64,000 nucleotides of DNA, taken from assembly GCA_013314755.1 (NCBI GenBank), contig JABUFA010000001.1, positions 23,594 through 87,593 on the forward strand. The letters are read 5' to 3'. The notes below the pieces were generated by a model. That model did no database searches, had not been told where the DNA came from, and saw nothing but the letters and a program-made list of their open reading frames with translations. Source of the stretch: Chthonomonadia bacterium. GTDB lineage: Bacteria > Armatimonadota > HRBIN16. Below are positions 12,773 through 56,549 of the stretch, piece by piece (the first letter of the stretch is position 1; each line of letters begins with the position of its first letter). The position numbers and the translations under genes are program-made.

Positions 12773-13528
12773 TCAGAGAAGCGTTAGCATGAGCTTACCA
12801 CATGCAATCGCCAGCACCACAGCCAGCACCCGGTTCAGGGCGCTCGGTACCAGGCGTCTCGCGCCGAAGTAGGAACCTACCAGCCCACCCACTATCGCCA
12901 CCGCCATCGGCAACCACAGCGACCCGACCACCAGTTTATCCGTGCTCACCCGCGCCAGCAGTCCCGCCAGCGAGTTCAACAGCACAAAAGAGGCTGCTAC
13001 CCCTGCGGTATCGCGCGGCGTCGCCCATTTCAGCAGAATAAGCAGAGGGCTGAGAAACACCCCGCCTCCAATGCCCACAATGCCCGAAATCAAGCCCACT
13101 CCTGCGCCCACGCCCAGCGCGGTCGGCAAAGCAGGCGATTTGACACCATCCGCACCTGCCGAAGCGGTCCCACCCTGGAACAACAGCAGTCGTAACGCTG
13201 CCATCGCCAGCCCAACCGTCAGCAACAGATGGAACAGCCACAGGGGAACCTTCACCAGGCCACCGATGAACGCCGCCGGAATGGAGGCAACCAGAAACGA
13301 ACCCGCCAGCCGCGCCGGAAAGTGCCCCGCCAGCGCGAACTGCACCAGCGCTAGCCCCGAAACCACGGTGTTCAGGATCAGCGCGGTCGTAGATGCCTCC
13401 TGCGGGGGAACAGAGGAAGCCATCAGCGTCAGTAATGCCAGATAGCCTGTGGCGCCGCCATGCCCTACCGAAGCGTAGAGCATCGCAACCACAAAAAAGC
13501 CTATCAGCAGGTAGTACGCCTCATGCAT
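12773..13528 (-). CDS. TauE/SafE (DUF81) family anion exporter-like permease
   Basis: Polytopic membrane protein with the characteristic VGHGGATGYLALL start region and an internal repeat. Probable start at the internal MHEAYYLL. Embedded in the Moco operon. Confidence 0.7.
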   Translation of the reverse strand: MHEAYYLLIGFFVVAMLYASVGHGGATGYLALLTLMASSVPPQEASTTALILNTVVSGLALVQFALAGHFPARLAGSFLVASIPAAFIGGLVKVPLWLFHLLLTVGLAMAALRLLLFQGGTASAGADGVKSPALPTALGVGAGVGLISGIVGIGGGVFLSPLLILLKWATPRDTAGVAASFVLLNSLAGLLARVSTDKLVVGSLWLPMAVAIVGGLVGSYFGARRLVPSALNRVLAVVLAIACGKLMLTLL

Positions 13529-43691: not shown

Positions 43692-45053
43692 TCACCGCTG
43701 AGTCTGCGCCTGCACCAGCGCGAGGTAGCGTTTGCGCAGTTCGGGGTCGCGCTGAATTGTCTTCTGGATCTCCTCGTTAATCTGGCGCGCGGCGGTGCGC
43801 AGGGCGTCCGCTGCCGATTTCTGATTGCTCTTCACTAGGTCTAACTGCTTGTTCAGGATGCGCATGGCGGTCTGCCCGTTGACGAAGGGGCTGATTTCAT
43901 CGGGCACGGCGTAGTTCATCGCATCGCGCCACACGGCGTTAAAATCCTCCTCCGGGTAGGCGGGGTCATGCAGGTATTTTTCGGTATACGAGTACTTCTT
44001 CACCGGCGCGAGGGCGTCCGCCTGATGGTTAATCAGCTCGTTATACTCCTTGCTGGCGAGGTACAGCACGAACTTCAGCGCGTGTTGTCGGCGTGGGCTG
44101 TTGCGGTTGATCAGCGAGGCACGCCCGTAGCCGCGAAAGATGCGGTATGGTCCATGTGGCGACTCCACCGCGCCCAGCTTTAGCCCCCGATAGCTGCGCA
44201 GGGTACACAGCCACCATCGCCCGCCCAGCGCCATCGCGCCCTTCTTCGCGCCAAACCAGGTAATCGTGCCCGAACCCCAGCCTCCCTGTGTCGCCATCGC
44301 CGCCTCCTCCACCGGGCTGGGCATCACGCGGTACTTATAGATAAGGTCCTGCATGAACTGCACCGCCGCAATCGCCTGCGGACTGTCGATGATACAGCGT
44401 GTGCCGTCGGGTGTGTACAGCCGTCCACCCCATTGCAGCACGAAATGATACCAGTTCCACCAGTCCATCAGGAAGCCGAATTGCACCGGTCTGCCGCTCC
44501 GGTCGCGGATAGTGAGCTTCTGGGCGACCTCCAGAAACTGTTCCCATGTCCAGGGTCCTTTGGGATAGGGCACGCCGTATCGGTCGAAGATGTCCTTGTG
44601 GAACCAGATGGCGTTAACCGCCGCGTTGGTGGGAAAGCCGTAGACGCGCCCTTCGTGGATGATGTTGGGGTGCACCGCCCGCCACACGTCGTTTTCCACG
44701 TCGATGCCCGCCTTTTTGAGTTCGTCGGTGATGTCCCACGCGATGCCCGAGCGCACGTAGGCGGAGAGCTGAAAACCGTCGTAACAGTCGAAGATGTCGG
44801 GTCCGACGCCTGCCAGCGACTGCACAATGACCTTCTCCATGCCGGTGTTGCTGGGGTCCAGGCGCAGGTCATATTCGGGGTGCAGTTTGTTGAACAAGGC
44901 AATCTGCTCACGGCGGGCAGGGTTATCATCGCTGACCCACACCAGGGGGATTTTGCCCTGGGCGGTGTCGCGCGGCTGGATACGCCACGCAACCAGCGAG
45001 AGCAGAACCAGTACGACAAACGCCCCAGCGAAGAAGTATTTCATGGGAACCAC
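43692..45053 (-). CDS. ABC transporter extracellular solute-binding protein (family 1, sugar)
   Basis: Signal/anchor helix followed by a ~430-aa SBP-type fold. First gene of the SBP-x-MalF-MalG block. Confidence 0.85.
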   Translation of the reverse strand: MVPMKYFFAGAFVVLVLLSLVAWRIQPRDTAQGKIPLVWVSDDNPARREQIALFNKLHPEYDLRLDPSNTGMEKVIVQSLAGVGPDIFDCYDGFQLSAYVRSGIAWDITDELKKAGIDVENDVWRAVHPNIIHEGRVYGFPTNAAVNAIWFHKDIFDRYGVPYPKGPWTWEQFLEVAQKLTIRDRSGRPVQFGFLMDWWNWYHFVLQWGGRLYTPDGTRCIIDSPQAIAAVQFMQDLIYKYRVMPSPVEEAAMATQGGWGSGTITWFGAKKGAMALGGRWWLCTLRSYRGLKLGAVESPHGPYRIFRGYGRASLINRNSPRRQHALKFVLYLASKEYNELINHQADALAPVKKYSYTEKYLHDPAYPEEDFNAVWRDAMNYAVPDEISPFVNGQTAMRILNKQLDLVKSNQKSAADALRTAARQINEEIQKTIQRDPELRKRYLALVQAQTQR

Positions 45054-53616: not shown

Positions 53617-56223
53617 TTACCCCACCACTTCTGCCTGCACGCGCCTGGTGAACACCAGCTCACCGTTCTGGGCGTCCACCACGATATGGTCGCCCTCGGC
53701 GAACTCGCCAGCCAGCAGTTTGGTGGCGATGGTGTCCATCACGCGCTTCTGCAGGACGCGCTTCAGCGGTCGCGCACCATACACGGGGTCAAAGCCCTCC
53801 GCCGCCAGCACTTCCTTCGCTGCGTCGGTGACCGTCAGCTGGATGTGTTTGTCCTCCAGTCGCTTCTGCAGGAGGCGAATCTGGATGTCCACAATCTGCT
53901 TAATCTCGTTCACCGACAGCGGATTGAACACGATAATCTCGTCGATGCGGTTCAGGAACTCGGGGCGGAAGTGTGCCCGCACCGCGTCCATCACCTGCAT
54001 CCGCGCCTCCTGCATGTCCAGGAAGGCGTTCTCGGCAAGGAAGTGCGAACCGATGTTGGAGGTCATAATCAACACGGTGTTCTTGAAGTCCACCGTGCGA
54101 CCTTTGCCATCGGTCAGGCGACCGTCGTCCAGCACCTGCAGGAGCACGTTGAACACCTCCGGGTGCGCCTTTTCAATCTCGTCCAGCAGGATGACGCTGT
54201 ACGGACGCCGGCGCACCGCTTCGGTAAGCTGTCCGCCCTCTTCGTAGCCCACATAGCCGGGCGGGGCGCCAATCAGCCGTGCCACCGAGTGCTTCTCCAT
54301 GTACTCCGACATGTCGATGCGGATCATCGCCCGCTCGTCGTCGAACAGGAACTCGGCTAAGGCGCGCGCCAGCTCGGTCTTACCGACGCCGGTCGGTCCC
54401 AGGAACATGAACGAGCCGATGGGTCGGTTCGGGTCCTGCAAGCCGGCACGTGCCCGACGCACGGCGTTCGCCACCGCCTGAATCGCGTGGTCCTGTCCAA
54501 CCACGCGCTGGCGCAACCGCTCCTCCATGTGCAGGAGCTTCTGCATCTCGCCTTCCATCAGGCGCGAGACGGGAATGCCCGTCCACTTGCTGACCACCTC
54601 AGCGATGTCGTCGGCGTCGACCTCCTCTTTCAGCAGTTTCATGTGCTTCTGCAGTTCCTCCAGACGCTTCGTTTCGGCGTCCAGCTGCTTCTGTAGGGAG
54701 AGGATGACGCCGTAGCGCAGTTCCGCCGCTCTGGCGAGGTCGCCTTCACGCTCCGCAGCCTGCTCCTGCAGGCGCGCCTGCTCGATCTGCTCCTTGATAC
54801 TGCGGATGCGCGAGATAATCTCCTTCTCCTGCTGCCAGTGTGCCTTCAGGCGGTTGCTCTCCTCGCGCAGGTTGGCGATTTCCGCCTCCAGCTTCTCCAG
54901 TCGCTCCTTGCTGGCAGGGTCATCCTCCTTGCGCAGAGCCTCGCGCTCGATCTCCAACTGGCGGATGCGCCGCTCGATTTCGTCGATTTCGGTGGGCATG
55001 GAGTCGATCTCCATGCGCAGGCGCGATGCCGCCTCGTCAATCAGGTCAATCGCCTTGTCGGGTAGGAAGCGGTCGGCAATGTAACGATGCGAAAGAGTCG
55101 CCGCTGCCACGATGGCGCTGTCGGTGATGCGCACGCCGTGGTGCACCTCGTATCGCTCCTTCAGCCCGCGCAGGATGGCGATGGTGTCCTCCACATCAGG
55201 CTCACTGACCAGAATGGGCTGGAAGCGTCGCTCCAGCGCAGGGTCCTTCTCAATATGTTTGCGATACTCGTCCAGCGTGGTGGCGCCCACACAGCGCAGC
55301 TCACCTCGCGCCAGCATCGGCTTCAGCATGTTCGCGGCGTCAATGGCGCCTTCCGCTGCGCCCGCGCCCACCAGCGTGTGCAGTTCGTCAATGAAGACGA
55401 TAATCTGCCCCTCGGCGGACTGAATCTCGCGCAGAACCGCCTTCAGACGGTCTTCGAACTCGCCGCGATACTTGGTGCCTGCCACCAGCGCGCCCAGGTC
55501 CAGCTGCCAGACGCGCTTGTTCTTGAGACCTTCGGGCACGTCGCCCGCCACGATGCGCTGTGCCAGCCCTTCTACGATGGCGGTCTTGCCGACGCCCGGT
55601 TCGCCGATAAGCACCGGGTTGTTCTTGGTTCGCCGCGACAGCACCTGTATCACGCGCCGGATTTCGTCGTCGCGCCCGATGACGGGGTCCAGCTTGCCTT
55701 TGCGGGCGAGGTCGGTCAGGTCGCGTCCGTACCGCTCCAGCGCCTGGTATTTCTCTTCCGGGTTCTGGTCGGTGACGCGATGCCCGCCGCGAATCTCCAT
55801 CAACGCCTGATACAGGCTATCCGGCGTCACGCCTGCCTGTTTCAGCAGTCGACCCGCCGCGCCCTGCGTGTCCTGCACCAGCGCCATCAGCAGGTGCTCG
55901 GTGCTGACGTACTCGTCCTTCAGGCGCTCTGCCTCTTCAAAGGCTTTGTCCATCACCTGCTTGAAGCGCGGCGTGATGTACGACGCGACCGATGCGCCGT
56001 GTACCTGTGGCAGTTTCTTCAGTTCCGCCTCCACATACCGGCGCAGAACGGGCAGTTGCACGCCCAGCTTCTGCAGAACGGTCGGCACGATGCTTTCGGT
56101 CTGGTCAATGAGTGCCAGCAAGAGATGTTCGGCGTCGATGTTTTGATGATTCATGCGCTCAGCGATGCTTTGTGCGTTCTGCACCGCCTCCTGAGCGCGG
56201 ATGGTCAATTTATCCAATCGCAT
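53617..56223 (-). CDS. clpB: Chaperone ClpB (Hsp104-type AAA+ disaggregase)
   Basis: 868 aa with two AAA+ modules ([15 protein letters not shown]; [15 protein letters not shown]) and a long coiled-coil middle domain. Confidence 0.95.
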
Positions 56224-56265
56224 GGTCTACCCTCCTGCGTATGATATTCTCGTTTTCTCACCTGT

Positions 56266-56295
56266 ATTATACCACTTGATATTACTATTATCAAG
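56266..56295 (-). promoter_or_regulatory. Consensus sigma70-type promoter of clpB (TTGATA-17-TATAAT) overlapped by HAIR-like inverted repeat CTTGATA-N7-TATCAAG (candidate HspR operator)
   Basis: Read directly: -10 at 56266-56271, -35 at 56289-56294, 17-bp spacer. The palindrome 56275-56295 differs from the HAIR consensus CTTGAGT-N7-ACTCAAG at 2 positions per half-site. Confidence 0.6.
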
Positions 56296-56371
56296 TCTTT
56301 TGCGCACTATATTAGAAAATATTTGATAGTGAAAGGCGGCTAATATCCAGCCTTTCCCTGCAAGGGAACGA

Positions 56372-56465
56372 GAGCCTCACCTCTCCCCGCGTCGGGGAGA
56401 GGCCGGGAGAGGGGTTTTCCGTGTTTCCCTCTCCTTGTGGGAGAGGGTCAGGGTGAGGGCTTCTC
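56372..56465. repeat. REP-like composite repeat, inverted copy of 49950-50045
   Basis: The reverse complement matches GCCCTCACCCTGACCCTCTCCCAC(G/A)AGGAGAGGG…CCCCTCTCCC.GCCTCTCCCCGACGCGGGGAGAGGTGA with few substitutions. Confidence 0.85.
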
Positions 56466-56549
56466 CTGCAGGTAGGGCTGTTCCACAAAGGACTCCCCCT
56501 GCAAACCGCGTATACGAATGTAAAACGCGCTATCGTGAAGGAGGCTCCG

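Follow-up and report, generated by a model that had tools for sequence, protein, structure and literature searches.

Introduction

HspR is a heat-shock repressor of the MerR family, and in the systems studied its repression is relieved by titration of DnaK or CbpA. It binds the inverted repeat HAIR, for which the consensus CTTGAGT-N7-ACTCAAG is quoted, and HAIR-like repeats at clpB, dnaK and cbpA promoters; divergent arms are tolerated, and mutation of the arms abolishes binding (PMC6102357, PMC7464140). In M. tuberculosis, clpB, acr2 (a member of the hsp20 family) and hsp70/hsp40 are repressed by HspR (PMC7448276), and the HspR of D. radiodurans binds HAIR near promoters (PMC6888292).

Here we describe a HAIR-like palindrome at the clpB promoter of a 64-kb stretch of DNA, called the window below and meaning the whole stretch that was analysed. 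We propose that this palindrome, set in a near-consensus sigma-70 promoter, is probably an operator at which a MerR-family heat-shock repressor of the HspR type binds.

Results

A HAIR-like palindrome overlaps the clpB promoter

The window encodes no heat-shock gene besides clpB. Nine database ClpB clusters match its ClpB at 94-95% identity; the single one with a name comes from an Armatimonadota metagenome-assembled genome (MAG). Matches at 71-76%, where named, are called Armatimonadota, Chthonomonadaceae or bacterium HR15, with two exceptions (Actinomycetota and Chloroherpetonaceae), and among the matches listed in a contig scan with the same protein, relatives from other phyla appear at 69% identity or less. 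Relatives recovered via ClpB matches were treated as Armatimonadota, an assignment that is partly inferred. Several prepilin-type/DUF1559 proteins are also encoded in the window; a prepilin motif tried as a marker for Armatimonadota contigs proved too sparse. Between positions 45000 and 49000, where a LacI-like regulator and a prepilin-type protein are encoded, GC is 0.50-0.54 against about 0.60 elsewhere, and this segment may be acquired DNA.

The clpB leader, read 5' to 3' on the minus strand, is aaaagACTTGATAatagtaaTATCAAGTggTATAATacaggtgagaaaacgagaatatcatacgcAGGAGGGtagaccATG, and its features are collected in Table 1. The preliminary description of this DNA had read a TTGATA-17 bp-TATAAT promoter on the clpB strand and an AGGAGGG motif with a 6-nt spacer before the ATG, and both are there exactly as given. 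In a promoter scan, the two hexamers matched the sigma-70 consensus at 11 of 12 positions with a TG extension present, and this was the top promoter match in the 5 kb scanned. Counted from the predicted start, the leader would be about 35-40 nt long. The gene upstream of clpB is transcribed divergently.

The -35 element had further been placed inside a perfect inverted repeat, CTTGATA-N7-TATCAAG. This repeat is indeed perfect, and it extends one base further on each side, giving ACTTGATA-atagtaa-TATCAAGT, which spans the -35 and reaches the extended -10. Compared with HAIR, 10 of its 14 bases match; the CTTGA/TCAAG core is identical at 10 of 10 positions with equal spacing, and the two substitutions per arm noted earlier fall at arm positions 6-7 only.

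Table 1 Features of the clpB locus of the window, a CIRCE element of a relative, and exact copies of the palindrome upstream of heat-shock and hspR genes in metagenome stretches
Feature	Locus	Position	Strand	Remark
clpB coding sequence	window	53617..56223	minus	868 aa; gene controlled by candidate operator
Shine-Dalgarno AGGAGGG	window	56230..56236	minus	followed by 6-nt tagacc, then ATG
Predicted transcription start	window	56257..56261	minus	from promoter geometry, 5-9 nt past -10
-10 hexamer TATAAT	window	56266..56271	minus	17-bp spacer from -35
Extended -10 TGgTATAAT	window	56266..56274	minus	first T is the final base of the promoter-proximal arm
-35 hexamer TTGATA	window	56289..56294	minus	within promoter-distal palindrome arm
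14-base repeat CTTGATA-N7-TATCAAG	window	56275..56295	minus	perfect inverted repeat
23-bp operator, HAIR class (predicted)	window	56274..56296	minus	perfect inverted repeat, 8-bp arms, 7-bp spacer
CIRCE	L212	about 12980-13006		before groES (13047)
Exact palindrome, clpB	L131, L141, L185 (Thermaceae-like)			upstream of gene
Exact palindrome, dnaK	L090 (high-GC)			upstream of gene
Exact palindrome, cbpA/dnaJ then MerR gene (hspR)	L139, L096/L168			upstream of genes; hsp20 divergent in L139
Exact palindrome, MerR gene (hspR) directly	L100			upstream of gene
Exact palindrome, hsp20	L195			upstream of gene
Exact palindrome, htpG	L106, L107, L133, L162, L198			upstream of gene

The CTTGA-N11-TCAAG core occurs once in the window, against 0.03 copies expected from shuffles. 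With up to three mismatches allowed, the window holds no second copy of the 14-base palindrome pattern and no canonical HAIR, nor any match to CIRCE (TTAGCACTC-N9-GAGTGCTAA) or to the CtsR tandem heptad (RGTCAAA-NAN-RGTCAAA). About one perfect palindrome with 8-bp arms is expected per 64 kb, so that such a repeat is not rare in itself and the evidence lies in the position, sequence and conservation of the clpB palindrome.

Other elements were noted in the same intergenic region. Upstream of the operator, at 56306-56333 on the minus strand, a weak promoter-like TTCACT-16-TATAGT is accompanied by the inverted repeat CACTAT-N15-ATAGTG and by TATCAAA, an additional half-site; the related locus L081 conserves none of these, and L082 has just tCAAATATT, 10 bp nearer the operator. 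Between clpB and the divergent ORF at 56535, two perfect GC-rich stem-loops, CCTCTCCCCG-CGT-CGGGGAGAGG and CCCTCTCC-N5-GGAGAGGG, occupy positions 56380-56447, with no further copy in the window.

Both palindrome arms are retained upstream of clpB in relatives

Some ten Armatimonadota relatives have preserved both arms in front of clpB, and the spacer and flanks diverge. L081, L082 (= L141) and L131, whose ClpB proteins are 94-95% identical, retain ACTTGATA-N7-TATCAAGTggTATAAT, with unrelated upstream DNA and with spacers that differ (atattaa in L081, ttatcat in L082/L141 and atagtaa in L131). The module is also retained in relatives with 71-76% ClpB identity, where arm positions 6-7 vary. L083 and L084 carry ACTTGACA-N7-ACTCAAGT upstream of clpB, the right arm being the exact canonical HAIR arm ACTCAAG; at the same place, ACTAAAGT is found in the Chthonomonadaceae loci L085-L087 and CATCAAGT in L209, a 5.37-Mb genome. 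In L208 (bacterium HR15) and L212, the site is placed just downstream of the -10 instead.

An alignment of 11 such sequences (A1) leaves A.TTGA.A, T.AAGT and the -10 element invariant and the flanks unconserved. Sigma-70 imposes no sequence on the promoter spacer. The TCAAG arm, which lies in this spacer and is conserved as a mirror of the -35 arm, thus looks like the footprint of a dimeric DNA-binding protein. These comparisons support the view that the clpB palindrome is under selection.

HAIR-type and CIRCE sites occur at other heat-shock genes of relatives

Two relatives carry HAIR-type sites at other heat-shock genes. In L210, which has a dnaK-hsp20-clpB cluster and a ClpB that is 76% identical, ACTTGACAatatcagACTCAAGTggTATAAT stands 108 nt before dnaK; in L216, ACTTGACAacataagACTAAAGAgaTACGAT precedes hsp20, and clpB comes next after hsp20. 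In the Armatimonadota-like MAG L212 (GCA_964429225.1), a perfect CIRCE element, TTAGCACTC-N9-GAGTGCTAA, stands before groES-groEL, implying HrcA in Armatimonadota. In the related loci, which add up to about 0.2 Mb, copies of the core in an AT-rich context stand at heat-shock genes only. Taken together, the dnaK and hsp20 sites and the groES CIRCE element of these relatives point to the classic split between HspR-type and HrcA control. The recurrence at other heat-shock promoters that had been anticipated is borne out in relatives, at dnaK of L210 and hsp20 of L216; in the window, clpB is the one heat-shock gene and its palindrome has no second copy.

In L210 and L216, clpB lies behind hsp20 and has no operator of its own; in these lineages its transcription may come from read-through or from a promoter without regulation. 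A GC-rich hairpin separates hsp20 from the downstream clpB in both (L210:9884-10000 and L216:9788-10000), followed by a T-run in L210 only.

The same palindrome precedes hspR operons in other phyla

When metagenomes were scanned for exact matches to the 16-base palindrome, at least 120 stretches were found. Many of the listed matches are chance occurrences, in coding sequence, Bacteroides-like terminators, phage-like DNA or LysR boxes. In 14 of the 120 stretches listed, belonging to nine sequence families, the site nevertheless lies no more than 110 nt from the start of a heat-shock gene (Table 1). By a rough estimate, not a computed one, about one stretch near heat-shock genes would be expected by chance, since well under 1% of intergenic regions have a heat-shock gene beside them.

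Several of these copies stand before genes for recognizable HspR proteins. The L139 and L096 MerR proteins score 115 and 109 bits against the NCBIfam HspR equivalog NF047375 (cutoff 105 bits), and JGI and NCBI give the name HspR to homologues of both. The exact palindrome is also found at -156 of clpB in the Ktedonobacterales locus L036, and in L028, a Chloroflexia MAG, GTTGACA-N7-TATCAAGTtcTATAGT precedes a dnaJ-hspR-clpB operon with a promoter-operator architecture like that of the window clpB. Since the TA/TA arms also occur at hspR operons of other phyla, the variant is not peculiar to the window lineage; on this comparison, TA/TA is a HAIR variant of wide distribution that accompanies hspR.

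An hspR homologue lies just upstream of clpB on the same strand, often after dnaJ, in L028, L042, L052, L003, L018, L033, L056, L060 and L067, which come from Chloroflexia, several actinobacterial MAGs and one Nitrospirota MAG. Several MAG dnaK loci, mostly actinobacterial ones, lack a clear match to the core, indicating that the core pattern is not universal for HspR.

Some copies have contexts of their own. At the htpG promoters of L106 (2791-2880), L107, L133 and L162 (46-49% GC, some labelled human-gut), the palindrome is followed by TTGACA, one CIRCE arm (TTAGCACTC) and TATAAT in that order, an arrangement that suggests dual control of htpG by HspR and HrcA. In the high-GC contigs L103 (position 1362) and L153 (position 337), the 16-base palindrome separates LysR-family genes from the genes divergent to them and probably represents LysR T-N11-A boxes. 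In L093, L124, L138, L145, L156, L164, L165, L172 and others, which are gut Bacteroides-like contigs, it makes up the stem of hairpins of the form aaaag...ctttt, which are flanked by ...gtgacgggacttgaacccgtacgtcgtga, a repeated sequence that is possibly the end of a tRNA gene; this terminator-like hairpin repeat is unrelated to heat shock. Given the LysR, chance and terminator contexts, the palindrome sequence alone is not diagnostic for HspR sites.

The earlier proposal of HspR-type rather than CIRCE/HrcA or CtsR control of clpB is supported: the arms are conserved, copies precede hspR operons elsewhere, and the window contains neither CIRCE nor a CtsR box, the perfect CIRCE of L212 being at groES.

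Alternative readings of the palindrome

The competing reading that survives best, although we regard it as unlikely, is that the Armatimonadota have a real HAIR-like heat-shock operator at clpB, dnaK and hsp20 without a canonical hspR, the site being read by another MerR-like protein or an unrelated dimeric repressor that took it over or converged on it. In its favour, a tblastn search with two HspR proteins detected no hspR across the window and some ten related Armatimonadota loci, about 0.2 Mb in all. The linkage of hspR to clpB seen in other phyla is thus absent from the Armatimonadota loci examined. The best 120 homologues of the L139 HspR, most of them listed without an organism name, include names from Chloroflexi and Thermus and none from Armatimonadota. 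With no hspR in these 0.2 Mb, the identity of the binding protein rests on analogy. The MerR-family genes in the window and related loci are limited to a CueR-like one in L210 and one encoding a 228-aa protein in bacterium HR15 (L208:1132-1818), which has a weak MerR_1 match; the ACTTGATA 8-mer lies about 130 nt upstream of the latter gene. This protein was ruled out as HspR, which it does not resemble, and no NCBIfam model matched it; it has no homologue in the other related loci. A fused-type HspR locus (L215) was uninformative.

Against such a regulator, the sample from this phylum is only about 0.2 Mb, and hspR frequently lies away from clpB. No in-register palindrome is formed by the DNA in front of the HR15 gene. 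The clpB operator is a base-for-base match to sites before genuine hspR operons in other phyla, and the classic HspR regulon likewise has clpB, dnaK and hsp20 on one operator and groESL on CIRCE. A milder version, covered jointly by the same low estimate, holds that the symmetric change from GT/AC to TA/TA at arm positions 6-7 marks a distinct HspR specificity class; it would be common to the window lineage, Thermaceae-like bacteria and Chloroflexota, and possibly spread by regulator transfer.

We consider it very unlikely that the site binds a promoter-remodelling activator of the MerR type, or a LysR-type regulator at a T-N11-A box, instead of a repressor. MerR-family activators do bind between -35 and -10, and two of the listed metagenome copies, those of L103 and L153, adjoin LysR genes. 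However, MerR activators act at promoters with over-long spacers of 19-20 bp. The clpB promoter combines near-consensus hexamers with the optimal 17-bp spacer and the TG extension, and so can do without an activator; clpB has no adjoining LysR gene, either in the window or in relatives.

Two further readings are likewise very unlikely. The first, already largely refuted, takes the palindrome as an accident without regulatory role, the -35 of a strong sigma-70 promoter being mirrored by chance in the spacer: TTGA is part of any good -35, the last T of the right arm is part of the extended -10, and perfect repeats of this size are expected at the frequency given above, but the TCAAG arm is conserved across relatives amid variable neighbouring bases, the core has no second copy in the window, its AT-rich copies in related loci keep to heat-shock genes, and the palindrome is strongly enriched beside heat-shock genes among the metagenome matches listed. 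The second attributes heat control to nucleic-acid structure, either a leader that works as an RNA thermometer or a hairpin or terminator formed by the palindrome, such as it does seem to form in the gut Bacteroides-like contigs; but at clpB the palindrome lies upstream of the predicted start, has no T-run and faces a divergently transcribed neighbour, and the 42-nt leader has no significant RNA structure (-2.6 kcal/mol), folding no better than shuffled sequence (z = 0.58), which argues against an RNA thermometer.

Discussion

If the clpB palindrome is an HspR-type operator, a repressor dimer bound to it would cover about -37 to -15 and would keep RNA polymerase off an otherwise strong promoter by blocking sigma regions 4 and 3; we infer steric repression from this geometry. 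Heat or protein misfolding would then inactivate the repressor and allow clpB to be transcribed at full strength, either because a DnaK/CbpA partner is lost or because the repressor is intrinsically unstable, as in the systems studied. In Armatimonadota, the same module would also drive dnaK and hsp20, with groESL under HrcA/CIRCE.

The comparisons support an operator of the HspR/HAIR class in Armatimonadota, of which no published description was found in the literature searched. The HspR/HAIR heat-shock circuit would thereby be extended to a phylum that has been little studied and is represented mainly by metagenome-assembled genomes, in the form of a HAIR-like operator for clpB, dnaK and hsp20 and of CIRCE for groESL. 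The promoter and operator make up a compact, portable module, ACTTGAyA-N7-nnTCAAGT-nn-TATAAT, which could serve the prediction of heat-shock regulons in MAGs of several phyla. The switch is of a known kind and this example of it ordinary; it would not surprise a specialist, and it leaves the system understood as before.

Among the described systems, HrcA/CIRCE and CtsR likewise place repressor operators at heat-shock promoters, and neither motif is present at clpB or elsewhere in the window. The HspR sites of H. pylori and C. jejuni include HAIR-like repeats with divergent arms, bound at Pcbp, Pclp, Pgro and Phrc, and some promoters there combine HspR with HrcA (PMC6102357, PMC7464140), an arrangement comparable to the palindrome plus TTAGCACTC at htpG in the L106 group. 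HspR of these species protects 70-80 bp and needs flanking low-affinity sites, whereas A1 contains no conserved flanking sites.

The HspR/HAIR system of Streptomyces and Mycobacterium is like the window site in its 7-bp arms, 7-bp spacer, CTTGA/TCAAG core and overlap with a clpB promoter. Its regulon of clpB, dnaK and hsp20, with groESL on HrcA/CIRCE, is the same in the Armatimonadota relatives, and its HAIR arm ACTCAAG is found exactly in distant ones. The two differ at arm positions 6-7, which are GT/AC there and TA/TA at the window clpB. They differ also in the number of sites, the S. coelicolor dnaK promoter having three HAIR sites (PMC6102357) and the window clpB a single one, and in gene order, no hspR being linked to dnaK or clpB in the Armatimonadota loci seen.

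Arms like those of the window, ACTTGATA/TATCAAGT or GTTGACA/TATCAAGT, are found in the Chloroflexota- and Thermaceae-like loci L139, L028, L036 and L185. No experimental paper on these sites was found in the literature searched, and they are computational predictions. All four loci belong to other phyla than the window, and L139 and L028 encode HspR within the controlled operon. In L028 and L185, the left arm serves as the -35 and the right one adjoins the -10, as at the clpB promoter of the window.
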